58,850 nucleotides of DNA from Thermoanaerobaculia bacterium (GTDB taxonomy: Bacteria > Acidobacteriota > Thermoanaerobaculia > UBA5066): NCBI GenBank assembly GCA_041495865.1, contig JBGQDL010000002.1, positions 1 to 58,850 on the forward strand. The letters run 5' to 3'. Positions 2,830-30,410 of the stretch are shown piece after piece. The notes beneath the pieces are model-generated. The model did not search any database, was not told where the DNA came from, and saw only the letters and a list, made by a program, of their open reading frames with translations. Numbering within the stretch: position 1 is the first letter of the stretch; every line of letters starts with the position of its first letter. Made by a program: the position numbers and the translations under genes.

Positions 2830-3338
2830 ACACCACGCCCCTTCTCTTAACCGAGCTCGACACGCCGGCCGGCGCGATCGCCTTCGCGCGCCGCGGCGAG
2901 CGGCTCGTCGCGCTCTCCTTCAAGGACCACTGGCCGAGGCTCCTACGAGAGCTGGAAGCGCGCTTCGGCGACCTCGAGCTCACTCCGGACGCGACCGGCG
3001 GGCAGGCCGGTCGCGCGCTCCGGCGCTACTTCGGCGGCGATCTCCGCGCGCTCGACGCGCTCGAGGTCGACACGGAAGGGACGTCATTCCAGGAGAAAGT
3101 CTGGTCGCGTCTGCGGCGAATTCCCGCCGGCTCGACGCTATCCTATGCGCAGCTCGCGCGCGCGATCGGGAAGCCCTCCGCCGTCCGGGCAGTGGCCGGC
3201 GCGAACGCGCGGAATCCCGTTTCGGTCGTCGTGCCGTGCCACCGGGTCATCGCATCGGACGGAAAGCTCTCCGGGTATGGAGGCGGGATTCCGCGAAAAA
3301 GATGGCTTCTGACACATGAGGGCGCGCTCATCGCGTAG
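2826..3338 (+). CDS. ogt: methylated-DNA--protein-cysteine methyltransferase
   Basis: PCHRVI active-site motif. ATGA overlap with the upstream gene. AGGAG lies upstream of the ATG. Confidence 0.9.
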   Translation: MNTTPLLLTELDTPAGAIAFARRGERLVALSFKDHWPRLLRELEARFGDLELTPDATGGQAGRALRRYFGGDLRALDALEVDTEGTSFQEKVWSRLRRIPAGSTLSYAQLARAIGKPSAVRAVAGANARNPVSVVVPCHRVIASDGKLSGYGGGIPRKRWLLTHEGALIA

Positions 3339-8102: not shown

Positions 8103-9818
8103 ATGAAACGCGCGGCGCGAGTCGCGCCGCTTCCCATGCCTTTTTTCCAGGACCCGCCCCGGCTCACGAACCAATACGACGACGACCGGGTCCTGAGGAG
8201 CTTCCTCGCCCGGAAGCTCCCGGACGAGACACTCCAGGCCGTCGAGCCTTCGCTCCGCGAGATGGGCGCTCTCGCGGCCGGGCCTCTTTACGACCTCTTG
8301 CTCGCCGAGCCGGACGCCGTTCCGACGCTCACCGGCTGGGACGCGTGGGGCCGGCGGATCGACCGCATCGAGCCGACGCGCCTCTGGAAGGAAGTGGCTC
8401 CGCTCGCCGCCCGGATGGGGCTCATCGCGCTCGCATACGAGCGGCCGTGGGGCGCCCTCTCGCGCCTCCCGCAGATGGCGCTCGCGTATCTTTTCGAGCC
8501 CTCTTCCGGCGTTTACAGCTGCCCTCTCGCGATGACGGACGGTGCCGCGCGGACGCTGATCGTCTCCGGGAATCGCGAGCTGAAAGAGCGCGCCTACCCG
8601 CGCCTGACGAGCCGTGATCCGTCGCGGGCGTGGACCTCGGGACAGTGGATGACGGAGCGGACGGGCGGTTCCGACGTGGGCCTGTCGGAGACGGTCGCGA
8701 GGAGCACGCCCGAGGGCTGGCGGCTCTTCGGCACGAAGTGGTTCACCTCGGCCACGAGCTCCGAGATGGCGCTCACTCTCGGACGTCCCGAGGGGAACCC
8801 GCCGGGCGGGAGCGGCCTCGCTCTTTTCTTCGTCGAAACGCGCGACGCCTCCGGCGCTTTGAACGGAATCGAGATCCTCCGGCTGAAGGACAAGCTCGGA
8901 ACGCGCATGGTCCCGACGGCCGAGCTCCTCCTGAACGGAGCGATCGCCGCGCCGGTGATGGGCCTTTCCGGCGGCGTGAAGAACATCACGCCCATGCTGA
9001 CGCTCACCCGGATGTGGAACTCGGTGGCAGCCGTCGCCGGCATGCGTCGCGCGCTGGCGCTGGCGCGCGATTACGCCCGCCGGCGCGTGGCCTTCGGCGC
9101 CCCGCTCGCGGAGAAGGCGCTCCACCTCGAGACGCTCGCCGATCTCCAGGCCGTGTTCGAAGGCGCGTTTCACCTCACGTTCCGTGCCGTCGAGCTCGTC
9201 GGGCGCGACGAGGCCGAAGGCCTCGGCGAGCGCGAGGCCGCCCTCCTGCGCCTCCTGACGCCGATCGTGAAGCTCACGACGGGAAAACAGGTCGTGTCCG
9301 TCGCGAGCGAGACCCTGGAGTGCTTCGGCGGAGCCGGTTACGTCGAGAACACCGGCCTGCCGCGCCTCCTTCGCGACGCCCAGGTCCTGCCGATCTGGGA
9401 GGGGACGACGAACGTGCTCTCCCTCGACCTCCTGCGCGCGGCGGCGAAGACGGGCGGCCTCGCGCCTCTGGCCGCCGAAGTCGATCGGGCCCTTCAGGGC
9501 GTCTCGCACCCGGACCTGGCGGCCGCGGGTGACCGGGCCCGGGCCGCGGTGCGCCATGCGGAAAGCTGGCTCGCGGGCGCGAAGGACCCCGGGAGCCTCG
9601 AGGCTGGAGCCCGGCGCCTCGCGCTCACGCTCGGGCTCGCGCTCGAGACGGCGCTCCTGGCCGAGCACGCGAACTGGGCGCTCGAAAGGGAGCGGGACGC
9701 GCGTCCGGCGCACGCCGCGAGACGCCTCTCGCGCCTCCACGTCGGCCTCATCGACGACGGTTCGTCGGCAGCCGAGGCACGGGGCCTTGGGCGGGACGAG
9801 CCGGTTCCTTTGGCATAG
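8103..9818 (+). CDS. acyl-CoA dehydrogenase family protein, AidB-like
   Basis: 571 aa. WMTERTGGSDVG...GTKWFTSA...ECFGGAGYVE are motifs of the AidB subgroup of ACADs. Confidence 0.8.
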   Translation: MKRAARVAPLPMPFFQDPPRLTNQYDDDRVLRSFLARKLPDETLQAVEPSLREMGALAAGPLYDLLLAEPDAVPTLTGWDAWGRRIDRIEPTRLWKEVAPLAARMGLIALAYERPWGALSRLPQMALAYLFEPSSGVYSCPLAMTDGAARTLIVSGNRELKERAYPRLTSRDPSRAWTSGQWMTERTGGSDVGLSETVARSTPEGWRLFGTKWFTSATSSEMALTLGRPEGNPPGGSGLALFFVETRDASGALNGIEILRLKDKLGTRMVPTAELLLNGAIAAPVMGLSGGVKNITPMLTLTRMWNSVAAVAGMRRALALARDYARRRVAFGAPLAEKALHLETLADLQAVFEGAFHLTFRAVELVGRDEAEGLGEREAALLRLLTPIVKLTTGKQVVSVASETLECFGGAGYVENTGLPRLLRDAQVLPIWEGTTNVLSLDLLRAAAKTGGLAPLAAEVDRALQGVSHPDLAAAGDRARAAVRHAESWLAGAKDPGSLEAGARRLALTLGLALETALLAEHANWALERERDARPAHAARRLSRLHVGLIDDGSSAAEARGLGRDEPVPLA

Positions 9819-11037: not shown

Positions 11038-12222
11038 TCAGGGCTCGCCGCGGTACAGGGCCTCGAGATCGTCGAGCAGCCGGGGGAGGCGGAAAACGGA
11101 GGACGACGCCTCGGGGGCTCGTCGCGGCGGTTGCTCCGCCAGGTGATCGGCCAGCTCGCCGGTGTTTCCAGGCGTCACCAGCGCTCCGCGCGGCCGCTCC
11201 AGGTTGTAGAAGCGCCGATTCCACAGCCCGCCCGCGAACGTCCGCAGCAGCAGATCGGGAACTCCACCGACCGCCGTAGCGACGATCGGCAGGCCGCAGA
11301 CCGTGGCCTCGATGAGCGAAAGCGGCGTTCCCTCCTGATGCGAGCACAGCACAACCCCGTCGAGATCGGCGTAGATCCGGGGAAGGTCGAGCCGTGGCCC
11401 GCAGAAAACCAGCCTCCCCTCGAGACCCTCGTCGCGCACCCGCCGCCGGAACCCGTCCAGCCCCTCGCCGCCGCCGACGACGACGATCGCCGGTGCGGCT
11501 TCTCCCCGGCTCTCGCGAAGCAGGCGGGCGACGGTGACGAGCTGGGCGTAGTTCTTGACCGGCGCAATGCGCCCCACCGCGCCCCAAAGGAACTTGCCCT
11601 CGGGGATGCCGAGCTCACGCCGGAAGTCGCCCCGCGGCGGCAGGGTCTCGAGGCTTGCCAGGTCGAGGGCGTTTGGGACGATCACAATGCGAGCCGGATG
11701 GAGCCGGAGCAGGCGGGCGATTTCCGCCCGCTGGAGCGGCGAGAGAGCGACCACCCGATTTGTCGCCACGCGCGCCAGCACCGACTCGACGCCGCGGAAA
11801 ATCGCGCTGGCAAGCGGGGAGAAGTAGCCGGTCAGCGAGTGGCCGTGGAAAGTATGGAAGACCCGGAACGTGTCGCCCTGAGACGGCACCCGGGCGAGAG
11901 CCACCGCCAAGCGGCCCAGTGTGCCAGCCTTTGCGGTGTGGGTGTGGACGACGTCGGGGCGGAAGCGGCGGATGAGCCGACGGAGATCAGTCACGGCCGA
12001 GAGATCGTCCCCGGCGTGCGGCGTGCGACTCATGCGCAGAATCGTGACGACCTCGACCCCCATGCGCGCGGCGAAGGCGGAAAGGTCGTCTTCGCCCGTC
12101 TCGACCTGCCCTGCTGCAAGGAGGACCTGGTGTCCGCGGGCCGCCAGGCCGGCATTGGCCCACACCGCGTGCTTGGTGGGGCCGCCCGAATTCAGGCGCG
12201 TCAGAACACGGAGGATTCGCAA
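11038..12222 (-). CDS. glycosyltransferase family 4 (GT-B)
   Basis: MRILRVLTRLNSGGP...DVVHTHTAKAG...C-terminal E..G.P...EA motif (HQEGTPLSLIEATVCGLPIVAT). TTG start. Confidence 0.85.
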   Translation of the reverse strand: MRILRVLTRLNSGGPTKHAVWANAGLAARGHQVLLAAGQVETGEDDLSAFAARMGVEVVTILRMSRTPHAGDDLSAVTDLRRLIRRFRPDVVHTHTAKAGTLGRLAVALARVPSQGDTFRVFHTFHGHSLTGYFSPLASAIFRGVESVLARVATNRVVALSPLQRAEIARLLRLHPARIVIVPNALDLASLETLPPRGDFRRELGIPEGKFLWGAVGRIAPVKNYAQLVTVARLLRESRGEAAPAIVVVGGGEGLDGFRRRVRDEGLEGRLVFCGPRLDLPRIYADLDGVVLCSHQEGTPLSLIEATVCGLPIVATAVGGVPDLLLRTFAGGLWNRRFYNLERPRGALVTPGNTGELADHLAEQPPRRAPEASSSVFRLPRLLDDLEALYRGEP

Positions 12223-12250
12223 GCTACCGGCGGCTCGCGGTTGCAGGCCA

Positions 12251-14029
12251 CTAGCGAATGCCCGCCTCGCGCAGCTCGACGCTGCGCTCCACGCAAACCT
12301 GTCGGGCCGCGCGAAGCACCGCGGGGTCGAGGTCGGTGATGGCGACGATGACCTCGTCCGCCGGGTCGGCGTCGAGGACTTGGGGCAGCATGGCGAGCGG
12401 GCCGAGCACCGGCGAGCCGTTCAGACGGCGGCCGATCTTGTCGGGACTGTCGTCGAGGAAGCCGATCACCCGAGAGCGGGCGTGACGGTCGTTCTTGAGC
12501 AGTCGCAGCACGGCATCGCCCAGGTTCCCGGCACCGAGGATCACCACCCGTCGCCCACCGGGGCCTCGGAAGGGGTCCAGCACCTCGGCGATCGAGCGCG
12601 TTGCCATGCGCGCGAGAGCCACCGCTGCCGTGGTGAGGATGGCATCGAGGACGATGACGGCCTGGGAGTGCACGGCGATGCCTCCGGTGAAGACAAGGAA
12701 GGCGACGAAGAAGAGCGAGGAGATGGCGACTCCACGTACGATGGCCAGCAGGTCGGCCAGCGCGAAGGCTCCCGGCACGCTCCGGTAGACGCCGGCGGCG
12801 AAGAACGAGACGAGCCGGAGGGTGATCACGATCGGCAGCATGCGGGTCAGCAGCTCGGTCTGCGCACTCGCCAGGGTACCTCCCCACCGCAAGAGCGTTG
12901 CGGCCAGGTACGCGCCACAGATCAGTGCGAGGTCGACGATCACCTCGACGACGCGGGTCTTGTGGGCGACGAACGCATCGAGCAGGAAGAAGCCACGGCT
13001 GCGCGCCGCCGAGATCGCCGCCGCGTCACGCTGGTAGACGGGCAGGGAGCCCAGGTAAGCCCCGAAGTAGTAGACGACGAGCGTGGCGATCAGCGACAGC
13101 AGCACCAGCACGGTGCCGGGGAGGGAGTCGAGCGCCAGCGACGTCGCTCCGCCCAGCGCCGCCAGGGCCCACAGCACGAGGACGGCGTTGCGCTCGGGGA
13201 TGCCCAGCGAGACCAACCGGTGGCTGGTGTGGTCGCGCCCGCCCTGGGAGATTCGCCGCCCGGCCAGCAAGCGCAGCACGGTAACCAGAGTGGTATCAAA
13301 GATCGGTACCAGGAGGACGAAGACGGGGACCGCCAGCGTCGCCAGCGTCGTCACCGGCCGTGCTCCGAGGTCGACGAGCGACAGCGCGCCGAGCGCATAG
13401 CCGAGAAAGAGACTCCCGCAGTCCCCCATGAAGACCGTGGCGGGAGTGAAGTTGTAGAGCAGGAATCCCAGGCAAGCGCCGACGAGGCAAAGTGAGGTGG
13501 TGGCAAGGAGCCCGTTTCCCCATCTCAGGGCGTGGAGGGCCAGGACCCCTGCCGCCACCGCGGCCACGCCCGCCGCCAGGCCGTCCATGTTGTCCAGCAG
13601 GTTCATGGCGTTGGTAATGCCGACGATCCACGCCATCGACAAGACCACGGAGACGACGGGATGGAGGCCGGGGATCCGGAGCCCGTAATAGATGGGTAGC
13701 AGGGAAAGCGCGATCTGCGCGATGAGCTTGGTGGCGGGACGGATGCGTATCAGGTCGTCCACGAGGCCCACGACCGCCATCGCCGCCGCACCCACCGCGA
13801 CGCTCAGCCACAGCGGCAATCGGGGCCAGCCGACGAGGGCCACAGCGGGGAGCAGCGCCGCAACGACAATGGCGGGCCCGCCGAGCAGCGCTGTCGGCCG
13901 GCGATGCCAGCGGTCCTCATTGGGCCTGGCGACGAACCCTCGGCGGGTGGCGATGGCGCGGGCCAGCGGAGTGAAGGCGGCCGCAAGGCCGAAGGCGACG
14001 GCGAGCAGGAGAAAGGGACGGGCGCTCAT
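12251..14029 (-). CDS. WecA/MraY-family polyprenyl-phosphate HexNAc-1-P transferase fused to a 4-TM + Rossmann (CoA_binding_3-like) module
   Basis: VDDL, NAMNLLDNMDGLA, MGDCGSLFLGY and DHTSHRL motifs are present. The C-terminus VVILGAGNLGDAVLRLL...VIGFLDD...PVLG resembles the N-terminal module of WbaP/PglF. ATG at 14029 overlaps the upstream TGA (ATGA). The 862-aa ORF start is rejected. Confidence 0.85.
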   Translation of the reverse strand: MSARPFLLLAVAFGLAAAFTPLARAIATRRGFVARPNEDRWHRRPTALLGGPAIVVAALLPAVALVGWPRLPLWLSVAVGAAAMAVVGLVDDLIRIRPATKLIAQIALSLLPIYYGLRIPGLHPVVSVVLSMAWIVGITNAMNLLDNMDGLAAGVAAVAAGVLALHALRWGNGLLATTSLCLVGACLGFLLYNFTPATVFMGDCGSLFLGYALGALSLVDLGARPVTTLATLAVPVFVLLVPIFDTTLVTVLRLLAGRRISQGGRDHTSHRLVSLGIPERNAVLVLWALAALGGATSLALDSLPGTVLVLLSLIATLVVYYFGAYLGSLPVYQRDAAAISAARSRGFFLLDAFVAHKTRVVEVIVDLALICGAYLAATLLRWGGTLASAQTELLTRMLPIVITLRLVSFFAAGVYRSVPGAFALADLLAIVRGVAISSLFFVAFLVFTGGIAVHSQAVIVLDAILTTAAVALARMATRSIAEVLDPFRGPGGRRVVILGAGNLGDAVLRLLKNDRHARSRVIGFLDDSPDKIGRRLNGSPVLGPLAMLPQVLDADPADEVIVAITDLDPAVLRAARQVCVERSVELREAGIR

Positions 14030-14997
14030 ATGGCCAAGCGGTGGTAATCGGCGATTCGCTCGATGATCCGGGACAGCGAGGTGCGAGGAGTGAATCCGAT
14101 CAGATGGCGAATCCTGTTGAGGTCCGGGATGCGCCGCGGCATGTCCTCGAAGCCGCTGGCGTAGGCTTCGGCATACGGGACGAAGACGATCTCCGACCTG
14201 CTCCCCAGCTGCTCGCGGACGAGGTGGGCGAGGTCGTACATGGTGACCTCCTCCAGGCCGCCGATGTTGTAGATCTGCCCCCATGCCTCGCGCCGCTCGA
14301 CCAGGCGCGTGAGCGCCCAGACCACGTCGGCGACGTCGCAGAAACAGCGCGACTGCGTACCGTCCCCGAAGACGGTGAGGGGCGAGTTCGCGAGGGCTTG
14401 GCGGACGAAGCGGGGGAGCACCATCCCGTATCGCCCGGTCTGCCGCGGGCCCGCGGTGTTGAACAGGCGAACGATGCAGACCGGGAGCGACTTCTCGTGA
14501 AAGTAGGCGATCGCGAGGAACTCGTCGAGAGCCTTGCTGCACGCGTAGGCCCAGCGGCCGCGGGTAGTGGCGCCGAGGACCAGGTCGTCGTCCTCGCCGA
14601 AGGGAAGCTTGGTGGACTTGCCGTACACCTCGGAGGTCGAGGTGATGAGCACGGGCTTCTTCTGCTGGTTGGCGAGCTCGAGCACGATCTCGGTGGCTCG
14701 GACGTTGGTTTCGATGGTGCGCACGGGGCTCTCGACCACCAGTTGGACCCCCACCGCCGCCGCCAGATGGAAGATCATGTCGGCGCGCTCCACGAGGCTC
14801 GCCAGCAGCTGGCGATTCATCACCGTATCGATCGTGCACTCGAACGCCGGGTGACCCTTCAGGTGTTGGACGTTCTCGATGCTCCCGGTGGAGAGATCGT
14901 CGATGACGAGGACACGATGCCCCTGCGCGAGGAGGCGCTCGGCGAGATGACTGCCGATGAAACCGGCGCCGCCAGTGATCAAATCGGTCCTGATCAT
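14026..14997 (-). CDS. NAD-dependent epimerase/dehydratase (extended SDR; UDP-sugar epimerase or decarboxylase type)
   Basis: ITGGAGFIGSHL Rossmann motif. The YACSK catalytic motif is YxxxK. 323 aa. Confidence 0.9.
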   Translation of the reverse strand: MIRTDLITGGAGFIGSHLAERLLAQGHRVLVIDDLSTGSIENVQHLKGHPAFECTIDTVMNRQLLASLVERADMIFHLAAAVGVQLVVESPVRTIETNVRATEIVLELANQQKKPVLITSTSEVYGKSTKLPFGEDDDLVLGATTRGRWAYACSKALDEFLAIAYFHEKSLPVCIVRLFNTAGPRQTGRYGMVLPRFVRQALANSPLTVFGDGTQSRCFCDVADVVWALTRLVERREAWGQIYNIGGLEEVTMYDLAHLVREQLGSRSEIVFVPYAEAYASGFEDMPRRIPDLNRIRHLIGFTPRTSLSRIIERIADYHRLAI

Positions 14998-15315
14998 CGC
15001 GGAGCCGAAAGGGCTCAGGCCGGCACCACGTGGGGGTCGCCGCCGCAGTAAACGCGGGGCCCGGCCAGCCGCTCGACGACGTACTCCGGCATGCGGACGT
15101 TCACCTCTTGCACTGGGCGCCCCGAAACTGGCGGAGAGTGCTCATGCATGCTAGCGCCGCTGCCTCGCGTTCGCCAAGCGTCCTGCCGGCGGCCCCTGGG
15201 CAGGCTCCCACAGCCGGGAACCCGCTGGCGAGCCATCCCCCTGGGAGGCCGCTGCCGGTGGCGGCTGGGCCGGCGGTTGAGGCCCTTTGCGTCGACGGGT
15301 AAGCTGCCGCCGTCC

Positions 15316-15573
15316 ATGTCACCGCACGAGACAGTGGCGGCGTTCCTGCGGGCGCGCTTTCGCCCCTCCCTTCGGAGCGGCCAGCTCGGACTCGACCAGC
15401 CACTGCTGTCGAGCGGCATCGTCGACTCCTTCGGCGTCCTGGAGCTCATCGCCTTTCTCGAGGACACCTTCCACGTCACCATCTCTCCGTCGCGCCTCGA
15501 GATGACGGAGCTCGAGACCGTCAATCGCATCGTGGCGCTGGTCGAGCGGGTACGCCAGGGAACGGGCGGCTGA
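15316..15573 (+). CDS. phosphopantetheine-type carrier protein, DltC-like
   Basis: 85 aa. LLSSGIVDSFGVLELIAFLEDTF contains the DSx Ser (Ser38). The DSFG..EL context resembles D-alanyl carrier proteins rather than the FAS ACP DSLD motif. Its stop overlaps the next ATG (TGATG). Confidence 0.75.
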   Translation: MSPHETVAAFLRARFRPSLRSGQLGLDQPLLSSGIVDSFGVLELIAFLEDTFHVTISPSRLEMTELETVNRIVALVERVRQGTGG

Positions 15574-16514
15574 TGACCTACGTCTACGATCTGACGCTCG
15601 GGCTCCCTCACACCAATCATCGTGGGCTTTCCGAGCACCTGCTGCTCGAGTACGCCGGCCACTTTCAGTGGCAATCGATCTGCGCCGCGGCCGGCGCTCC
15701 GCTTTCCAGGCTGCGGTCCACCGCCGGCAACGAGGTCTATGCCAGCTTCTACTACATCGAGGAGCGCATTCCGCCCACCGCGCCGCTCGAGTCCTTCGGG
15801 CTCGACGACACCTTGCGGTTCGCCATCGCCCTGCGGTCGTTCAAGAACATCGTCCTCGAGGGACGGCTGGTCTTCGATCGCCGCGAGCGCCTGCCGGACA
15901 CGCGGCGCTTCGAGGCGATGCTGGCAGCCACGACCGGCGACATCGCCTCGCCGTTCATCCGCTTCGCCAACATCTTCATCACGCCGGAGGGCGGCAACAG
16001 CCGACTCCGCGTGGCACCGCCGGCAGACGTCGACTTCTCGGCTCTTCCAGCCCTGCCAAACGACGACAATCCGTACCATCTGACCCGCGCCGCCAGCGAG
16101 CACGGCAGGCTCGGCGTGCTGGACGAAGCATGGTTGCCGGTCGGCGCCTTCCAGCACCGCTACGACATCGACGTCGATCGGGACACCAATGGCGCCGGTC
16201 TGGTCTACTTCGCCAACTTCGTGGCGTTCATGGACACTGCCGAGCGCCTGGCGCTGCGCACGCTTGCGCTTGCGGGCGGGGACGTCGGCGCCTCGGCCCG
16301 GCGGTCGTTGCGACATCGCCGCATCGCGTACTACGGCAACGCGGGTTTGTCCGACACGCTGCTCGTGAGAGTGACGATCCTGCGCCACCCGGCGCACCCT
16401 GACCGCCTGGGATTCCGCTATTCCGTCGAGCGCCAGGAAGACCACGAAGCGATTTGCCTTTCGGAGGCGATCAAGGCTCTTCCCATCGGCGCCTGCGAGA
16501 TCGGCGTCTCGTGA
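15573..16514 (+). CDS. double hot-dog fold protein, LnmK-like acyltransferase/decarboxylase candidate
   Basis: 313 aa in two halves. The N-terminal half has GLPHTNHRGLSEHLLLEYAGHFQW. The C-terminal half has DIDVDRDTNGAGLVYFANFVAFMDTAE, which resembles the 4HBT-type hot-dog signature. Assignment is from memory of the family and is not searched. Confidence 0.6.
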   Translation: MTYVYDLTLGLPHTNHRGLSEHLLLEYAGHFQWQSICAAAGAPLSRLRSTAGNEVYASFYYIEERIPPTAPLESFGLDDTLRFAIALRSFKNIVLEGRLVFDRRERLPDTRRFEAMLAATTGDIASPFIRFANIFITPEGGNSRLRVAPPADVDFSALPALPNDDNPYHLTRAASEHGRLGVLDEAWLPVGAFQHRYDIDVDRDTNGAGLVYFANFVAFMDTAERLALRTLALAGGDVGASARRSLRHRRIAYYGNAGLSDTLLVRVTILRHPAHPDRLGFRYSVERQEDHEAICLSEAIKALPIGACEIGVS

Positions 16515-17533
16515 GAACGCGATTCACCCGGCGACTGGCGTTCGCCGTGCTCTGGCTCGCCGTGTTCGATCAGTTCGTGCCGCGTCTGCTGCGGCGCGTA
16601 GAGAGGGAGCGCTACGAGGCCGGTAGCGTCTTCCGCTTCGAGAACTCCGACCTCTTCGCGCTGGGCCCCCTGGTGTCCTACCTGCGAGAGCATCCGCAGG
16701 GCAATCGCCGGCGAGTCGTCTTCCTCGGCAACTCGATCATCTTCGGCTACGGACTTGCCGCTGCCGAGGCGATCCCTGCCCAGTTCCAGGAGCAGCAACC
16801 GGGCACCAGGGTTTTCAACGCGGCGTTCAACAGCGCCGGGCTGGGCAGCAGCTACCTGATCGCCAAGGCCATCGTCGAGGCGGTCGACGGCTTGGTCGTC
16901 CTCATCGGCTCCCCAGGCACGGCCCATGACATGCTGCCGTCGCTGATCCCGGTCGAAGAGAGCGACCGCCGCGCCTTCGCGCTGCGTCCGCCCGATCGGA
17001 TCGAGCGCCGCCTCCAGTCGCTCGCCGGCGTCTGGCGGCTGTACGCGTACCGGTATCGACTACAGGCTGCGCTCTTCTCAACCTCCACAAGGCAGTACGT
17101 CTATTTGCACAAGCGGGACATCGTGCGCCGTCTCGTGACCCCCTTCACCTCGCCGCCTCCCCCGCCGCCGACACCCTGGCGTCCAAGCGACGACCGCGCG
17201 GTATTGCGGGCGCCCCGGTCCGCGAGCCCGCTGGACGCGGAGGGCCGGCGCCAGCTCCGACAGAACCACCAACTCTTGTGCCAGTTCGCCGATCTGGCTC
17301 GTTCCCACCGGAAACCGGCGGTGTTCGTCCAGGTGGTTGACGTCAGCGTCGAGCTCAGCGACTCGGAAGCGGCCGACTTCAACGCGATGTTCGCCCCCTT
17401 TGCCGAAACCGTCAACATCGGCTTGCCTCCGTCGCTGAGGATCGACACCATGCACCTGACGCCCCAAGGGGCGCATGCGGTTGCGGTGGCGCTCTCCCGG
17501 TACGACAGCGAGCGAGAGATCGGGCGGAGATGA
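16511..17533 (+). CDS. membrane-anchored SGNH/GDSL-like protein (DltD/AlgJ-like candidate O-acyltransferase)
   Basis: GTG at 16511 overlaps the upstream TGA (GTGA). N-terminal anchor is RLAFAVLWLAVF. VVFLGNSIIFGYG is block I, with Ser75. RIDTMHLTPQGAH is block V, DxxH. Confidence 0.6.
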   Translation: MRTRFTRRLAFAVLWLAVFDQFVPRLLRRVERERYEAGSVFRFENSDLFALGPLVSYLREHPQGNRRRVVFLGNSIIFGYGLAAAEAIPAQFQEQQPGTRVFNAAFNSAGLGSSYLIAKAIVEAVDGLVVLIGSPGTAHDMLPSLIPVEESDRRAFALRPPDRIERRLQSLAGVWRLYAYRYRLQAALFSTSTRQYVYLHKRDIVRRLVTPFTSPPPPPPTPWRPSDDRAVLRAPRSASPLDAEGRRQLRQNHQLLCQFADLARSHRKPAVFVQVVDVSVELSDSEAADFNAMFAPFAETVNIGLPPSLRIDTMHLTPQGAHAVAVALSRYDSEREIGRR

Positions 17534-18687
17534 TCTTCACCGACCTTCGCTTCCTGGTGCTGTTCGCCGCCTGCTGGGGGTGCTTTTTCACGCTGCCACG
17601 CAGCTGGCGCCCGTCCGTGCTCGCCTTCTGGGGCGCCGTCTTCTACCTGACCTACGCCGGGACTTTCCTGGCGGCGGTCCTCGTCCTCGTCGGGTTGGTC
17701 CATTCTTCCGGCCGGCGGCCGCTGGCTTGGGCCGCAGGAACAACGACAATCGCCCTGCTGGCGTATTTCAAGCTCACGCTCCGCGCCAGCCCGCTGCCCG
17801 CGACAGACACGGGTCCGGCCGCGATCCTCATCCCGCTCGGCTTCTCGTATCTCGCCTTCGAGCTGCTGCACGTGGTGATCGAGCGCCACCGCGGCCGTAT
17901 CCAGGTTCTGCGCCTGGCGGATCTGCTCGCTTTCGCGTTCTTCGCGCCGGCGCGCATCGCTGGGCCGATCAAACGCCTTCCGGAGTTCACCGCCGCGGTC
18001 CAGGCGGCCACGCTGTCGGGCGCCAACGTGTACGCGGGCGTTCTGCGTGTGCTCATCGGCCTTGCCAAGAAGCTGCTGGTGGCAGACGTCCTCGCGCTGA
18101 CCGTGGCCGAGAGCTCCTACGTCAGCACCACGCGCCACGCCTGGACGATCGTGCTCGCATTCTCCTTACAGATCTATTTCGACTTCAGCGCCTACTCGGA
18201 CATCGCCATCGGGTTCGCTCGCCTGATGGGTATCGAGCTGCCGGAGAACTTCCGGTGGGCCTATCTGGCAAGCAACATCCGCGACTTCTGGAATCGCTGG
18301 CACATCACGCTGTCGCACTGGGTGCGCGACTACGTGTTCATGCCGACCGCGAGCGCTCTCTTCCAAACCAGGCTGCGGCGGTGGCCACCGGCCATCGCCG
18401 CCATCAGCTATCTCCTCGCCTTCCTCATCGTCGGCGCGTGGCACGGCGCCACCGGGGCGTTCCTCGTCTGGGGGCTCTATCACGGTATCCTGCTCGCTCT
18501 CTTCCATTTCGTCCGCCTGAAGACGCCGGCGCGGATCGCCGATCACCCGCTCTACCGCTCGCGCGTGGCGAAGGGACTCGCCGTCGCAGTAACATTCGCG
18601 TGTGTCACGCTCGGATGGGTGCCGTTCATGCTGCCGCTGAAGGAAGCGCAGAGGCTCCTGGGGATTATGTTTGGAGCCTCGAGGTGA
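17530..18687 (+). CDS. MBOAT family membrane-bound O-acyltransferase (DltB/AlgI-like)
   Basis: 385 aa, polytopic. YSDIAIGFARLMGIELPENF...NIRDFWNRWHITLSHWVRDYVF contains the conserved MBOAT His. ATGA overlap with the upstream gene. Confidence 0.9.
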   Translation: MIFTDLRFLVLFAACWGCFFTLPRSWRPSVLAFWGAVFYLTYAGTFLAAVLVLVGLVHSSGRRPLAWAAGTTTIALLAYFKLTLRASPLPATDTGPAAILIPLGFSYLAFELLHVVIERHRGRIQVLRLADLLAFAFFAPARIAGPIKRLPEFTAAVQAATLSGANVYAGVLRVLIGLAKKLLVADVLALTVAESSYVSTTRHAWTIVLAFSLQIYFDFSAYSDIAIGFARLMGIELPENFRWAYLASNIRDFWNRWHITLSHWVRDYVFMPTASALFQTRLRRWPPAIAAISYLLAFLIVGAWHGATGAFLVWGLYHGILLALFHFVRLKTPARIADHPLYRSRVAKGLAVAVTFACVTLGWVPFMLPLKEAQRLLGIMFGASR

Positions 18688-18794
18688 GGGCGTTGCTGAA
18701 GGACGTGCTCGTTGGCTTGGCGCTCGCGGTGCTGGTGGCCGTGTTGCTCCTTTTCGCCTCGTTCGACTCCACGTTCATCTATCGTGGTTTTTAG
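18684..18794 (+). CDS. 36-aa single-TM micro-protein with C-terminal FIYRGF (DltX-like)
   Basis: GTG at 18684 overlaps the MBOAT TGA (GTGA). Translation is VRALLKDVLVGLALAVLVAVLLLFASFDSTFIYRGF*. It is not listed as a separate ORF in the track, where it is the tail of the spurious 17475..18794 ORF. Confidence 0.55.
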   Translation: MRALLKDVLVGLALAVLVAVLLLFASFDSTFIYRGF

Positions 18795-18845: not shown

Positions 18846-20426
18846 ATGACACGACCCCTCGGTGCCGATCCGCCCGACCCATTTTCCGCGGGTGAGCCCG
18901 CCGCCACCCTTTCGTCCGAAGGCACGACCGGTCAAGTCGTGCGGGGGAGCCTGTGGTATTCCGGCGGGCAGGGCGTCACGCTGCTGGCCGCCCTGACGGC
19001 CACCCCGTTCGTGATCCGCGTGCTCGGTCCGGAGCAATACGGCGTTCTGGCGCTCATGAATGTACTCACCGCCTGTCTTGCGTTCAGCGATCTGGGAATG
19101 GGGATCGCCTCGACGCGCTTCGGGGCGGAGGCGCACGCGCGCGGTGACGACGACGGGGAGGCGGCGGCGATCTGGGCAGGCCTGCTGCTCGGCGCTCTGC
19201 CGGCCACGCTCGCAGCCACGGCTCTGGCAGCAGGGGCAAGCCCCCTGCTTCGGGCCCTGCACGTGCCCGCGCGCCTGCAGGACGAGGCGACAATTGCCCT
19301 GCGTCTGGCCGCCATCGGCATCGTGGCCCGGGTCGTGACCGGGGTGTTCAACACCCCGCAGCTGGTGCGGTTGCGTATGCGCCTGCACGCCGCGGTGACG
19401 ACCGCAGGCAGCGTCCTGCAGATCGCCGGCATCCCGGTGGCCTTGTCACTCGGCGCCGGCCTCGTGGGCGCCGGCGCGGTGATCGCCGGCGTCGGCATCG
19501 TCACCGCGGTATGCCAGACGTTGATCGCCCGCCGCATCCTGCCGCGCCTCGCCCGCCCGCGGTTCGAGCGACGGCTGTTCGGACGCCTGGCACGGTTCGG
19601 CGGCGCCATCGTGGTGAGCAGCTTCACCGGCCTGCTGCTCACCAACGGCGAGAAGCTCTTCCTCACTCGCCTGGTCTCCGTCGAGGCCCTGGCGTATTAC
19701 ACCGTCGCCTTCTCGCTCGCCAATCTGCTGATCATTCCAGCCGCCGCTTTGTACCACGCCATGCTGCCGACGTTCACGAGGTACCAGGCGAACGGGCAAT
19801 GGGAGGACCTGGCGCGCATCTACGGCGAGCTCCTGCGCGGCGTCTTGTTGATCATGCCGCTCATCGCGCTGGCGCTCTTCGCTGGAGCGAGACCCTTTTT
19901 CACGCTCTGGGCTGGCCCCCGCTTCGGCATGACCAGCACTCCGCTCTTCTTCGTCATGATCGTGGGCGTATTCACGATGGTCAGCGCTTACGTGCCGGCC
20001 TGTCTGCTGGTCGCCGTGGACCGCGCCGGCTTCGGCGCCCGCTACAACCTTCTCGAGTTGATTCCGTACCTGCTGCTGGCACTCCTCCTCACAGCACGCT
20101 GGGGCGGCGCCGGCGCGGCTGCGGCCTGGAGCCTGCGCTCGGTGGTGGCACTGCCCGTCTTTCTGCTGGCGGCGCGACGGAGCCTCGCCCTCCGCCATGC
20201 AACACCGTCGCCTTTGGGGGCCGTCTATTTCTCGGCGCTGGCGCTGCTGGTGTTGCCGTCGATTGCGGCTGCCTTGCTCGGCATCTCCTGGCCTCTGCTG
20301 CCGCTGGCCGCCGTGACTTCCTCTGCGGTGTACCTGTGGATCGTCTTCGCGCGGCTGTTGGATGAACGGGAAAGGGGCTGGATCAGGTCTAAGCTGCTGG
20401 TCAAGTGGCCCGCCGGGGCGGCGTAG
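18846..20426 (+). CDS. oligosaccharide flippase (Wzx/MOP superfamily)
   Basis: 526 aa with about 12-14 TM segments. N-terminal GGQGVTLLAALTATPFVIRVLGPEQYGVLAL is typical of polysaccharide biosynthesis (Polysacc_synt) proteins. Confidence 0.8.
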   Translation: MTRPLGADPPDPFSAGEPAATLSSEGTTGQVVRGSLWYSGGQGVTLLAALTATPFVIRVLGPEQYGVLALMNVLTACLAFSDLGMGIASTRFGAEAHARGDDDGEAAAIWAGLLLGALPATLAATALAAGASPLLRALHVPARLQDEATIALRLAAIGIVARVVTGVFNTPQLVRLRMRLHAAVTTAGSVLQIAGIPVALSLGAGLVGAGAVIAGVGIVTAVCQTLIARRILPRLARPRFERRLFGRLARFGGAIVVSSFTGLLLTNGEKLFLTRLVSVEALAYYTVAFSLANLLIIPAAALYHAMLPTFTRYQANGQWEDLARIYGELLRGVLLIMPLIALALFAGARPFFTLWAGPRFGMTSTPLFFVMIVGVFTMVSAYVPACLLVAVDRAGFGARYNLLELIPYLLLALLLTARWGGAGAAAAWSLRSVVALPVFLLAARRSLALRHATPSPLGAVYFSALALLVLPSIAAALLGISWPLLPLAAVTSSAVYLWIVFARLLDERERGWIRSKLLVKWPAGAA

Positions 20427-27095: not shown

Positions 27096-29003
27096 TTCGG
27101 AGCGGTGTTCCTGGCCGACGGTGAGGTCGCTCACGTCGAGCCAGCTCTGGCCACCCTCTTCCATCGCGGTCCCGACGGCGACGGCGTCTTTCGCGACAGC
27201 GGCGTGGTCCTGGGCTTCCGGCGTCTGGCCATTCTCGACCTCACGCCCGCCGGCGGGCAGCCGATGGTCTCCGCCGACGGCTCGGTGGCGGTCGTTTTCA
27301 ACGGCGAGATCTACAACCATCACGAGCTGCGCAACGAGCTGGCCGCGCTCGGCCACCGGTTCCGCTCGCGCAGCGACACGGAGGTCATCGTCGAGGGTTA
27401 TGGCGCCTGGGGCGATGGCGTTTTCGGGAGGCTCGACGGCATGTTCGCCATCGGCATCTGGGATGCGAGGCACCGACGCCTGCTGCTCTGCCGCGATCGG
27501 GCCGGCAAGAAGCCTCTCTTCTATTCACACGGCACCGATGGCGCGCACTCGATCCGTTTCGCCTCCGAGGCCAAGGCCATCCTCGCCTCCGGCCACGCCG
27601 CCGAGATCGATCTCGCCGCCCTTTCCTACGTGCTCTCCTTCGGCTACACCCCGCCGCCCGGGACGATGTATCGCGGCATCTCCCAGCTGCCGCCCGCGAC
27701 CGTGATGTCGTGCGAGAGCGGGAAGGCACCTCAATGGCGGCGTTACTGGCGCGCCCCCTTCGCCGCCGCGCCTCTGGAGGTCACGGTGCCGCAAGCGACG
27801 GCCGAGATCCGTCGATTGTTCGATGCCGCAGTCCGCCGGCGAATCGAGGCCGACGTGCCGCTCGGCGCCTTCCTCTCCGGCGGCCTCGATTCGACCATCG
27901 TCGTCGGCACGATGGCGCGCCTGCTAGGTCCCGGCGTACGGACCTTCTCCATCGGGTTCGCCGGCGATCCTCGCTACGACGAGACCAGCTTCGCCCGGCT
28001 CGCGGCGCGCACCTTCGCCACCCGACACGTCGAGTTCACGCTCGAGCCCTCGTCGTTCGCTCTCGCCGAACGCCTCGTCGCCCTCCACGATGGGCCCTTC
28101 GGCGACTCCTCGGCGATCCCAAGCACGGTGATTTCCATGCTCGCTCGGGAGCACGTCACGGTAGCCCTCACGGGCGACGGCGGCGACGAGCTCTTCAGCG
28201 GATATCTCCGCTTCCTTGCGGCGGATGCGGCGGAGAAGGTTCCCAGGTGGCTGCTGCGCGCCGGTGAGCTCCTGGTGGAGCGTCTCCCGTACGCAAACGG
28301 TGAGCGCTCGGCCGTCGCGCGCGTCAGGCGCTTCCTTGCCGCGGCGCGGATGCCTCTCGCCGACCGGCTGACGCGCTGGAGCTCGCTGTTCGCCTTCGAG
28401 CTCGACCAGCTCCTCCTCCCCGAGATCCGCGCCCAGGCCGCTGCCGACGCGCCACTCGGCTGGATGCGCGCCATCGTCGCGGAGAGCCGCGGAGCCACGA
28501 CGCTCGCACGCATTCTCGACCACAACTTCTCGACCTACCTGCCCTGCGATCTCCTGGTCAAGGCAGACCGCACCTCGATGGCCCACGGCCTCGAGCTGCG
28601 GTCGCCTTTCCTCGACACCGCGCTCGTCGAGTACGTCTCCCGCCTGCCCGACTCGTTCAAGCGCCGCGGAATGACGACGAAGTGGATCCTCCGTCGCGCG
28701 TTTCGCGATCTGCTGCCTCCACGCATCGCCGGCCGCGGCAAAATGGGCTTCGGCATCCCCCTCGGCACCTGGTTTCGTGGCGACCTGAAGGAATATTTGT
28801 ACGACCACCTCTCGGCAACGGCACTGCTCTACAGCCTCGTGGATCGCCGGTTCGTCGAACGGCTCCTCGACGACCACCTGGAGATGCGCGCCGATCACGG
28901 TCACCGCTTGTGGCTCCTCCTCACCCTGGAGCTCTGGCTGCGGTCTCTCTCTCGCGCTCGCTCCCCAGGGTCGCGGCCAGCGGCGCCAGCGACAGGGGCA
29001 TGA
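27084..29003 (+). CDS. asparagine synthase (glutamine-hydrolysing) family amidotransferase
   Basis: MCGIFG is an Ntn nucleophile N-terminus. SGGLDS is a PP-loop. 639 aa. The upstream 26859 start is rejected because it reads through the GT2 relic. Confidence 0.9.
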   Translation: MCGIFGAVFLADGEVAHVEPALATLFHRGPDGDGVFRDSGVVLGFRRLAILDLTPAGGQPMVSADGSVAVVFNGEIYNHHELRNELAALGHRFRSRSDTEVIVEGYGAWGDGVFGRLDGMFAIGIWDARHRRLLLCRDRAGKKPLFYSHGTDGAHSIRFASEAKAILASGHAAEIDLAALSYVLSFGYTPPPGTMYRGISQLPPATVMSCESGKAPQWRRYWRAPFAAAPLEVTVPQATAEIRRLFDAAVRRRIEADVPLGAFLSGGLDSTIVVGTMARLLGPGVRTFSIGFAGDPRYDETSFARLAARTFATRHVEFTLEPSSFALAERLVALHDGPFGDSSAIPSTVISMLAREHVTVALTGDGGDELFSGYLRFLAADAAEKVPRWLLRAGELLVERLPYANGERSAVARVRRFLAAARMPLADRLTRWSSLFAFELDQLLLPEIRAQAAADAPLGWMRAIVAESRGATTLARILDHNFSTYLPCDLLVKADRTSMAHGLELRSPFLDTALVEYVSRLPDSFKRRGMTTKWILRRAFRDLLPPRIAGRGKMGFGIPLGTWFRGDLKEYLYDHLSATALLYSLVDRRFVERLLDDHLEMRADHGHRLWLLLTLELWLRSLSRARSPGSRPAAPATGA

Positions 29004-30408
29004 GGATCATCTCGCGCAACCGGAAGAGCGTGCCGAAGTTCGTCACCACGTACGCCAGGCCGGCGGCGATCAGGAAGGCAGAAAGCAGGACCTGCACGGC
29101 GAGGGGCGAGGTCCTGCCGGCATGCCATGCGGCCCTCACTGTCAACAGCCCGCTGAGGACGGAGGCGAACAGGAAAAAGAGCGTGTCGAGCTCGACATAT
29201 GTCCATACTCCCCCGCCGGATCCGATCGAGAAAATGCCCAGGCGCCTCCCCACGGCCCGCGGGAGAAAGGTCGCCGCCAGGCCGGTCAGCAGGTTGCTCG
29301 ACTTCTCTTCCGTGGGGGCGGGCGACGCGAGTGGCGGGGTCGCGGGCGGACTGCTCCGAGCCGCCTGTCGCCCCTCTTCGGCGGCGCCGCTGATCTGCGA
29401 CGCGCCACCGGAAGAGACGAAGCCCTCGCGCAGCGCCACCAAGGGCCTCAGGAGAACCCTCTTCGTCTGCTCCCCGATCGAGCCGACCTCCGGGACCTCC
29501 CCGCCCGACTTGTACGGCATCAGGACGGCTCGTACGGTGGGAGGGAGCAGGGGCCCGCCGGAAAACACCACGACCTGGGATAACAGGATCCAAAGCGAGG
29601 CGCCGACGACGATGCGCCGCCACCGTCGCACTGGCGATGCCTGGAGCAGAGACAGCACCAGGCCCGCTCCGAGCGCCAACCAGAGGATGAGGGCGAAGTA
29701 GGCCCTTATCCCGGCGAGCTCGTAGATGACGGCGGCCAGGACCAACGCCCAGAGCACCCGTCGCCATCCCGCTCCCGTCTTCACGCTGTGGTCGAACCAG
29801 TGGCGACTGGCGTAGAACCACGCGATGACCAGCAAGCCGAAGAGCGGATCCTTGAGCGGTTGCGTCGACCACAGTATCCAGCTCGGATGCAGGCTCAGGA
29901 CCGTCAACGCGAGCAGCCCCGGGTACCTGCCCGCGGGTCCCAGCGACGCGCTCCAGCGCACCAGCGCCAGCGCGCCGCCGAGAAAACACGCACAGTTGAG
30001 GAGCAACCCCACACTCGTCACGTAGCCGAAGAGGGTCTGTGCCAGGCAGAGGATCTGCAGAAACGAGACCGACGGCCACGCCCCCCGATCCAGGGTGACG
30101 ATGGCGAGCAGGCCCTGGCTCGCCGCTGCGCGCGCCAGCGGCATGTAGTACTGCGAATCCAAGGCAAAGACCCAGAAGCCCCCGCCGAGGTAGTGGCTCG
30201 CCATCACCGGCAGCCGCAGATAGGAGATCCAGAACAGAGCGATGCCGGCCACCGCTCGCAGCAGGAAACCGGCGGTGACGATGCGGGTCGCCCATGGATC
30301 ACCCCCCCTGGACGCGCCGCGCCAAGCGGCCCAGAGAGCCACGCCCGCGGCGCTGGCGACGAGCGCCCGCAGCGCTCCGGCACCATCGATGAGAGAAAGG
30401 AGGGTCAC
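28921..30408 (-). CDS. polytopic integral membrane protein (candidate Wzy-type polymerase; function unproven)
   Basis: At least 10 hydrophobic segments plus one Ser/Pro/Ala-rich loop. GTG at 30408 lies 3 nt after the stop of the upstream gene. The start is uncertain. Confidence 0.55.
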   Translation of the reverse strand: MTLLSLIDGAGALRALVASAAGVALWAAWRGASRGGDPWATRIVTAGFLLRAVAGIALFWISYLRLPVMASHYLGGGFWVFALDSQYYMPLARAAASQGLLAIVTLDRGAWPSVSFLQILCLAQTLFGYVTSVGLLLNCACFLGGALALVRWSASLGPAGRYPGLLALTVLSLHPSWILWSTQPLKDPLFGLLVIAWFYASRHWFDHSVKTGAGWRRVLWALVLAAVIYELAGIRAYFALILWLALGAGLVLSLLQASPVRRWRRIVVGASLWILLSQVVVFSGGPLLPPTVRAVLMPYKSGGEVPEVGSIGEQTKRVLLRPLVALREGFVSSGGASQISGAAEEGRQAARSSPPATPPLASPAPTEEKSSNLLTGLAATFLPRAVGRRLGIFSIGSGGGVWTYVELDTLFFLFASVLSGLLTVRAAWHAGRTSPLAVQVLLSAFLIAAGLAYVVTNFGTLFRLREMILMPLSLAPLAATLGSERERETAARAPG

Positions 30409-30410
30409 CT

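Follow-up and report, generated by a model that had tools for sequence, protein, structure and literature searches.

Acyl esters on polymers outside the bacterial membrane affect antibiotic resistance, immune evasion, and biofilm properties, and the main bacterial route for their installation is a relay that pairs an MBOAT (membrane-bound O-acyltransferase) with a protein of the SGNH fold. The subject of this study is a five-gene cassette at positions 15316-18794 of a 58,850-nucleotide stretch of DNA from a Thermoanaerobaculia bacterium (contig JBGQDL010000002.1; the window, hereafter, is the whole of this stretch), which from its sequence looks like an apparatus that transfers a small acyl group across the inner membrane to a polymer on the cell surface. 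The described relays are currently split two ways: the Dlt pathway works with a carrier protein and a microprotein and its cargo is an amino acid, whereas the others take acyl-coenzyme A (acyl-CoA) directly, via a shuttle motif fused to the MBOAT (PMC12148441). In the PatA/PatB, AlgI/AlgJ/AlgX, and WssH-type systems, acetyl-CoA is used directly with no carrier, and the motif forms part of the MBOAT itself, carried on two additional helices (PMC12148441); non-Dlt MBOAT/SGNH pathways are stated to have neither a carrier protein nor a microprotein of the DltX kind (PMC12148441, JBC 2025, Walker and Clarke laboratories). The motif, a C-terminal F-x-Y-x-x-F (FXYXXF), is the acyl shuttle of DltX and of other bacterial MBOATs, and acts via an acyl-tyrosine (PMC12148441). 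A different body of work concerns LnmK, which decarboxylates methylmalonyl-CoA, carries the product as an acyl-O-enzyme formed on the Tyr62 phenolate, and delivers propionyl to the carrier LnmL, with Phe65 stabilizing the enolate (PMC11350588). The characterized LnmK homologs in the same review all serve polyketide beta-alkylation, in the leinamycin, myxovirescin, largimycin, and fogacin pathways (PMC11350588).

By analogy with these systems, we consider it likely that the cassette encodes a carrier-dependent relay of MBOAT, microprotein, and SGNH protein, by which a short acyl group would leave the cytoplasm and be attached to an envelope glycan outside it. The cassette consists of five open reading frames (ORFs) on the same strand:

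15316..15573, + strand: stand-alone acyl carrier protein (ACP), 85 aa (PF00550)
15573..16514, + strand: predicted LnmK-family acyl-CoA:ACP acyltransferase/decarboxylase, 313 aa, double hot-dog (TIGR04098)
16511..17533, + strand: membrane-anchored SGNH-fold protein, 340 aa, with putative triad Ser75, Asp312, and His315
17530..18687, + strand: DltB-like MBOAT, 385 aa (PF03062), without a fused C-terminal acyl-shuttle extension
18684..18794, + strand: single-pass microprotein, 36 aa, ending in LLFASFDSTFIYRGF (F-x-Y-x-x-F) before the stop codon

A check of the ORFs and their junctions found an overlap of 1-4 nt at each of the four junctions (TGATG at 15571-15575, GTGA at 16511-16514, ATGA at 17530-17533, and GTGA at 18684-18687), and the last stop codon of the cassette is the TAG at 18792-18794. 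A public protein collection holds the same 340-aa product as an independent gene call (P0121), and in the annotations of relatives the microprotein gene is called at the equivalent position, with a length of 36-37 aa. An earlier sequence-only reading of the window had claimed five translationally coupled genes with these four overlaps, and every coordinate was reproduced. It had also described the products as a carrier resembling DltC rather than a fatty-acid-synthase ACP, a protein with two hot-dog-like halves, an N-terminally anchored SGNH-like protein with GNS...DxxH, an MBOAT of DltB-like size with the RWHITLSHW histidine, and a 36-aa single-transmembrane peptide ending in FIYRGF; these descriptions agree with the scores, models, and conservation given below. 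The identity and fold of the parts, the conservation of their catalytic residues, their translational coupling, and the co-inheritance of the five functions are direct results of the sequence and comparative data.

The 313-aa protein is, as judged from its sequence and predicted structure, a bona fide member of the LnmK family. It scores 140.3 bits against TIGR04098 (the LnmK family model, with a curated cut-off of 100) over residues 8-295, and it matches LnmK in the PDB by sequence at E = 1.8e-11, or by family profile at E = 2.2e-16 over residues 24-296, with a sequence identity of ∼20%. Its AlphaFold model (pLDDT 85.6) is a double hot-dog, and the seven best structural matches in the PDB are all LnmK, with TM-scores of 0.80-0.84 and E-values of 1e-20 to 4e-22 (6x7l: TM-score 0.84, E = 4e-22); the next structural neighbors, acyl-ACP thioesterases (FatA), follow at ∼1e-10. 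The C-terminal half also matches YbgC-type thioesterase models weakly. Residues Y56 and F59 align with Tyr62 and Phe65 of LnmK, and both are invariant in 77/77 relatives, across all of the gene architectures described below. A dedicated ACP gene adjoins the LnmK-like gene at all related loci examined, and from these sequence features we propose that the 313-aa protein is the loader of the adjacent carrier. Because an LnmK-family enzyme would load the carrier in place of DltA, a short fatty acyl cargo is expected in place of D-alanine; furthermore, since LnmK couples transfer to decarboxylation and both key residues are conserved, a decarboxylated cargo (propionyl or acetyl) is, by analogy, more likely than a malonyl-type one.

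The carrier matches PF00550 (E = 4e-7 in Pfam) and scores 37 bits (E = 2.4e-9) against the NCBIfam DltC model, vs. 14-22 bits against the fatty-acid-synthase (AcpP-type) ACP models; on these sequence scores it lies nearer to DltC-type than to AcpP-type carriers, but it is not a DltC equivalog. The Asp37-Ser38 pair is invariant in 77/77 homologs, and Ser38, within GIVDSFGVLEL, is the predicted phosphopantetheine attachment site. The homologs are 82-84 aa long, a length that supports the ATG at 15316 as the start codon. The top NCBIfam match of the carrier was the OlsHI carrier (42 bits, below the cut-off), a lead that was dropped because that carrier belongs to the unrelated GH3-ligase ornithine-lipid pathway of planctomycetes.

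The MBOAT matches PF03062 (E = 9e-20; 71.7 bits vs. a gathering threshold of 27), has at least 7 hydrophobic segments, and has as its best and only solved relatives in the PDB the DltB structures 8jem and 6bug (E = 1.7e-35). Its alignment with DltB is co-terminal, reaching residue 428 of the 440 in the DltB chain, and the protein therefore has none of the extra C-terminal helices of the fused-motif MBOATs; its C-terminus (...LGIMFGASR) contains no shuttle motif. H258 in RWHITLSHW aligns with the histidine of WHMSLS in DltB, and both H258 and H305 are invariant (50/50). On this sequence evidence, the protein is a clear DltB homolog, though not a DltB equivalog.

The 36-aa microprotein has one transmembrane helix, followed by ...SFDSTFIYRGF at its extreme C-terminus. 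Its gene occurs in 35 distinct nucleotide versions in related loci, almost all of them 36 codons long, and the third position of each of the last 12 codons varies, whereas the encoded residues are nearly invariant (F31, Y33, and F36 are fully so). This synonymous variation over a near-invariant C-terminus argues that the ORF is a real gene under purifying selection at the protein level. By analogy with the Dlt pathway, the microprotein is proposed to be the DltX counterpart, with Tyr33 as the putative acyl-shuttle residue.

For the 340-aa protein, no match was found in Pfam (E up to 0.1, including DltD, PF04914) or NCBIfam, nor was anything significant found in a PDB sequence search (the SGNH esterase 7c2a aligns in blocks I and V, but its E-value of 0.94 is not significant), and nearly all of its 167 homologs are named "hypothetical". 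Since the sequence searches gave nothing significant, the SGNH assignment rests on structure prediction and Foldseek: the AlphaFold model (pLDDT 91.7) matches TesA-type SGNH hydrolases at E = 2e-4, with a probability of 1.0. The motifs G73-N74-S75 and D312-x-x-H315 are present, with S75 and H315 invariant and D312 at least 90% conserved among the homologs. By its modeled fold, its block I serine, and its block V DxxH, the protein is assigned to the SGNH/GDSL hydrolase superfamily. A basic N-terminus precedes a single hydrophobic helix at residues 9-27, and the catalytic domain is therefore predicted to be periplasmic. On the basis of the model, we propose this protein as the DltD counterpart and the final transferase.

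These parts suggest the following relay, each step of which we infer from characterized homologs. The LnmK-like enzyme would decarboxylate a 2-carboxyacyl-CoA (methylmalonyl-CoA, as for LnmK, or malonyl-CoA) to form an acyl-O-Tyr56 intermediate, and the propionyl or acetyl group would then pass from Tyr56 to the phosphopantetheine arm on Ser38 of the carrier. The acyl-carrier would dock on the cytoplasmic face of the MBOAT, where catalysis by His258 would carry the acyl group through the membrane funnel onto microprotein residue Tyr33. The acyl-tyrosine tail of the microprotein would swing to the periplasmic SGNH protein and acylate its Ser75, from which the acyl group would finally be placed onto a hydroxyl of the target polymer.

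Similarity searches with the LnmK-like protein (46-97% identity, with one locus at 30%) supplied the related loci: 16 in species-representative genomes and 80 in metagenomes, plus further contigs read with gene calls. The cassette occurs in uncultured Acidobacteriota (Thermoanaerobaculia and others, which together make up most of the carriers), Myxococcota, Gemmatimonadota, and Zixibacteria. Co-occurrence was counted over the 38 loci with at least 1.6 kb of upstream and at least 3.4 kb of downstream sequence; in 35 of these, a carrier, an SGNH protein, an MBOAT, and an F-x-Y-x-x-F motif lie beside the LnmK-like gene. Co-occurrence in relatives, a check that the sequence-only reading had proposed, thus extends, for the five functions, over several phyla. 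Three gene architectures were found:

Architecture A (the window): ACP - LnmK - SGNH - MBOAT - microprotein
Architecture B (Vicinamibacterales and other Acidobacteriota): microprotein (ending ...APFVYAGF) - MBOAT - ACP - LnmK - SGNH
Architecture C (Zixibacteria and Gemmatimonadota): ACP - LnmK - MBOAT of 477-498 aa with a fused ...PFIYN[VR]F terminus - SGNH
Architecture B microproteins: L014:4295-4492, L015:1042-1239, L016:4270-4476, L020:4294-4464, L013:3782-4546, and L092:2820-3530

In architecture B, the SGNH protein is of the GDSL family PF13472 and not of the window type, and the microprotein is of the DUF5989 type: that of L014, for example, is a member of DUF5989 (PF19451; E = 1.4e-10) and ends in ...SFxGRGFAPFVYAGF. 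The window microprotein itself gives no DUF5989 match in Pfam, and a profile comparison of the two types aligned them in C-terminal register at a probability of only 52%. DUF5989 may be a family of DltX-like acyl-shuttle microproteins. Three loci with a fused-motif MBOAT (L017, L018, and L085) retain the ACP-LnmK pair, and the LnmK homolog of 30% identity (L021) again lies between an ACP and an MBOAT. The ACP-LnmK pair thus persists with the MBOAT-SGNH-motif set through reordering and through replacement of its partners, and this persistence argues for the cassette being a functional unit.

The core motifs of AMP-binding enzymes ([ST]G[ST][ST]GxPK and Y[RK]TGD) were absent from every frame of the 58.9-kb window and of 101 related loci, and no adenylation enzyme was found among the Pfam-annotated neighbors of the window cassette or of the annotated relatives; this inspection reached up to ∼8 kb on each side of a locus (5-8 kb where the contig allows). 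The sequence-only reading had noted that the window lacks an adenylation enzyme, which the motif search bears out, and had suggested that an acyl group drawn from a CoA thioester, and not an amino acid, is relayed across the membrane onto an exopolysaccharide or O-antigen-like polymer. The LnmK-family loader, the co-occurrence in 35/38 loci, and the lack of a nearby adenylation enzyme all lend support to a CoA-derived cargo.

The genes on either side of the cassette in the window are largely concerned with glycan assembly:

18846..20426, + strand: Wzx-type flippase (PF01943, PF13440) with 12 hydrophobic segments
11038..14997, - strand: divergent upstream glycan genes assigned by Pfam, namely a GT4 glycosyltransferase, a WecA/MraY-type initiating transferase fused to a CapD-like domain, and an NAD-dependent sugar epimerase/dehydratase

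The wzx gene starts 51 bp after the microprotein gene and is read in the same direction; the interval holds no convincing terminator (a promoter and terminator scan around the cassette gave nothing above shuffle expectation), and wzx is followed, on that strand, by a glycan cluster (GT2, GT4, GT1, GT2, a methyltransferase, GT1, and AsnB) that extends to ∼29000. The glycan dependent on this adjacent Wzx is the obvious candidate target in the window. Neighbor conservation was counted by targeted searches with the window glycan genes, and a previous attempt by clustering of flanking ORFs was dropped because the clusters were mostly shadow ORFs of the cassette genes in high-GC loci. Homologs of the window glycan-assembly genes lie near the cassette, at varying positions, in ∼10 of 41 large loci, and the Wzx gene is kept directly downstream only in the nearest relatives, L006, L022, and L077. 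The sequence-only reading had placed the cassette, followed directly by a Wzx flippase and glycosyltransferases, at the head of a polysaccharide operon: Pfam annotation upholds the downstream genes, and the placement holds for this window and a minority of relatives, but not as a conserved property of the cassette.

Several further observations concern this neighborhood. ABC-2 transporter and glycosyltransferase genes, or PMT_2 genes, flank the cassette in some other loci. The PMT_2 genes (ArnT/GT-C type) lie just downstream of it at L004:13024-14637, L107:10273-11979 (the same as in L010 and L063), and L021:5368-8769, and such neighbors hint that, in those organisms, the target is a glycan assembled in the periplasm; PMT_2 was dropped as a general recurrent neighbor, with only three independent contexts. 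The L006 contig, a metagenome-assembled genome (MAG) contig labeled Anaeromyxobacteraceae, shares 96% nucleotide identity with 11.7-22.5 kb of the window and has ∼2.4 kb of extra sequence between its epimerase and carrier genes (L006:3325-5715), including a second epimerase-like ORF, where the window has only 234 bp (15055-15289). Within the window, the GT2 ORF would share 65 nt (20362-20426) with the end of wzx if it began at its first ATG, and its true start is probably further downstream. No Wzy-type polymerase was identified for the glycan cluster, and no Pfam family was found for the long ORFs at 28901-32222 (- strand); the ORF at 28901-30295 (- strand, 464 aa) was rejected as a Wzy candidate, as it has no hydrophobic segments, is rich in Arg, Gly, and Pro, and looks spurious. 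Positions 1336-3338 and 8103-9815 hold adaptive-response genes unrelated to the cassette: an Ada-AlkA fusion (Ada Zn-binding, AraC HTH, AlkA_N, and HhH-GPD domains), an Ogt-type methyltransferase, and an AidB-like acyl-CoA dehydrogenase.

The relay proposed above has to be weighed against a number of contrary observations. None of the four Dlt-like parts (carrier, MBOAT, SGNH protein, microprotein) reaches the curated thresholds of the Dlt families: the carrier lies below all curated cut-offs (37 vs. 68 bits and 25 vs. 52 bits for the DltC equivalog models NF003464 / TIGR01688), the MBOAT scores 212 bits on TIGR04091 (DltB) vs. a cut-off of 375, the SGNH protein has no DltD match in Pfam and its model resembles full-length DltD (3bma, 7dxm, and 6pfx) weakly (E = 3e-3, TM-score 0.37-0.43), and the microprotein has no match in NCBIfam, nor in Pfam at E-values of up to 10 (DltX included). 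A subclade of architecture A (L046, L051, L053, L098, and L101) has no microprotein ORF after the MBOAT, and no ORF ending in F-x-Y-x-x-F was found there within up to 5 kb on each side (less at contig ends). The three exceptions among the 38 loci consist of two that lack only the microprotein and one with ACP and LnmK alone, and the 35/38 figure itself describes one subfamily whose members are phylogenetically non-independent. At L001:7738-10185 and L002:2626-5073, the ACP-LnmK pair occurs without the SGNH, MBOAT, and microprotein genes, convergent with a hexapeptide-repeat acyltransferase and a methyltransferase; in this lineage, either other acyltransferases may draw on the acyl-carrier module or the missing genes may be located at another place in the genome. 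In most relatives, the cassette is a self-contained operon in unrelated surroundings and not beside glycan genes, and all related loci come from metagenomes or MAGs, with no cultured carrier of the cassette found. Finally, acetyl-CoA can be used directly, as by PatA, so that a decarboxylative loader is unexplained unless the cargo is not acetyl.

Because most cassettes are not beside glycan genes, it is possible, if on balance doubtful, that the same relay modifies a housekeeping polymer of the envelope (peptidoglycan, the lipopolysaccharide core/lipid A region, or another constitutive glycan or lipid) and that the adjacency to wzx is incidental. The dlt and patAB operons also lie apart from the synthesis genes of their targets, the downstream Wzx is common to three loci only, and elsewhere the cassette stands alone beside a cytochrome oxidase, an integrase island, an ABC exporter, a TIR protein, or an MFS transporter. 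Genes for peptidoglycan enzymes (Amidase_3, PBP5, and SLT) do occur within a few kb of it in L004, L105, and L103, but these proximities are few and could be due to chance, whereas glycosyltransferase genes of the window type (GT4, WecA-CapD, or others) recur near the cassette in about a quarter of the large loci, ABC-2/GT or PMT_2 genes adjoin it in others, and in the window itself only 51 bp, without a convincing terminator, separate it from wzx. The role of the LnmK-like protein could also be read differently, as only a decarboxylase or an editing thioesterase acting on the already loaded carrier, with charging by FabD-type malonyl transfer, by a phosphopantetheinyl transferase with acyl-CoA, or by a DltA-like ligase encoded elsewhere. 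Most double hot-dog proteins are thioesterases or dehydratases, the second-best structural neighbors and the weak YbgC-type matches point the same way, and the inspection for ligases had the limited reach given above. We nevertheless regard such a role as improbable: the protein exceeds the LnmK-family cut-off, LnmK leads its structural matches by an E-value margin of 11 orders of magnitude, the acyl-accepting tyrosine and the enolate-stabilizing phenylalanine of LnmK are invariant, the gene is translationally coupled to that of the carrier at every locus (including the lineage with nothing else), and 101 loci yielded no adenylation motif.

That the ACP-LnmK pair is a fragment of a leinamycin-type polyketide beta-branching pathway, with the MBOAT beside it by accident, accords with the polyketide setting of all characterized LnmK homologs in PMC11350588. 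Such an origin is exceedingly improbable, given that neither the Pfam-annotated part of the window (∼0.6-50.5 kb, with gaps) nor the annotated relatives contain a ketosynthase, an HMG-CoA-synthase, or an enoyl-CoA-hydratase, and that the MBOAT, SGNH, and motif pairing is kept in 35/38 loci and three architectures; on this context and conservation, both the polyketide fragment and a chance juxtaposition were rejected. A carrier-dependent relay from an LnmK-type loader to an envelope glycan is the reading that we favor. AT3-SGNH proteins are the other known route for acylating extracytoplasmic polymers, and in one locus (L106:4559-6726, - strand) genes for an Acyl_transf_3 (AT3) and an SGNH protein (PF19040) stand divergently beside an ACP - LnmK - SGNH cassette cut by the contig end; these are a single case and probably a separate system, and were set aside.

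No paper in the searched literature describes LnmK together with an MBOAT, although the original 2023 Dlt mechanism paper lies outside its coverage and a brief mention there is possible; within that scope, the remark of the sequence-only reading that this gene combination is not known to have been characterized stands. DUF5989 is likewise mentioned by no paper in the searched literature. More broadly, and as a tentative proposal that we place somewhat short of probable, the ACP-LnmK pair could be a portable acyl-donor module that serves MBOAT-SGNH relays irrespective of their architecture, whether the motif lies on one of the two types of microprotein or is fused to the MBOAT. The module would place a short acyl group other than acetyl (most probably propionyl, derived from methylmalonyl-CoA) on the envelope glycans of Acidobacteriota, Myxococcota, Gemmatimonadota, and Zixibacteria. 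Were this so, carrier dependence would no longer be peculiar to D-alanylation, some fused-motif MBOATs would not be users of acyl-CoA, and DUF5989 would constitute a second family of acyl-shuttle microproteins. The cassette predicts an undescribed envelope modification, possibly O-propionylation, in abundant and poorly studied soil phyla, and would give LnmK-type enzymes a role outside of polyketide synthesis. It also offers a testable function for two unannotated families, the 340-aa SGNH protein and the 36-aa microprotein, and a suggested one for DUF5989; since every part is small and mass spectrometry can follow the chemistry, the hypothesis is directly testable.

In comparison with known systems, the cassette matches four of the five roles of the Dlt system of Firmicutes (DltX-DltA-DltB-DltC-DltD, for teichoic acid D-alanylation). 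It shares with Dlt a stand-alone DltC-type carrier, an MBOAT of DltB length without a fused extension, a separate F-x-Y-x-x-F microprotein, and an anchored SGNH-fold protein as the putative transferase, and like dlt it forms a compact operon that is often away from the genes for polymer synthesis. Unlike Dlt, it has no DltA, an LnmK-family enzyme being the predicted loader; its gene order differs, and its hosts are diderm soil and sediment phyla in which a teichoic-acid target is not expected. The resemblance to Dlt is thus architectural, including the real but sub-threshold homology of the MBOAT to DltB, and does not amount to membership in the Dlt family. With LnmK-LnmL, the cassette shares a double hot-dog enzyme beside a dedicated carrier, a nearly superimposable fold (TM-score 0.84), and the equivalents of Tyr62 and Phe65; unlike LnmK-LnmL, it has no polyketide synthase partners, and the predicted recipient of its acyl-carrier is a membrane acyltransferase, not an HMG-CoA-synthase cassette. 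As in PatA/PatB, AlgI/AlgJ/AlgX, and WssH-type O-acetylation, an MBOAT is combined with a periplasmic SGNH protein and an acyl-tyrosine shuttle motif, in diderm hosts and with an envelope glycan as the presumed acceptor; unlike in PatAB and AlgIJX, the window MBOAT has neither the extension nor the motif, and a carrier and a separate microprotein are present. The architecture B microproteins, which are members of DUF5989 (PF19451), have in common with the window microprotein an F-x-Y-x-x-F end and a position beside an MBOAT. The cassette would therefore break the present two-way split of these pathways, as it combines the full Dlt architecture, in diderms, with a decarboxylating acyl-CoA loader, while its relatives pair that loader with fused-motif MBOATs.

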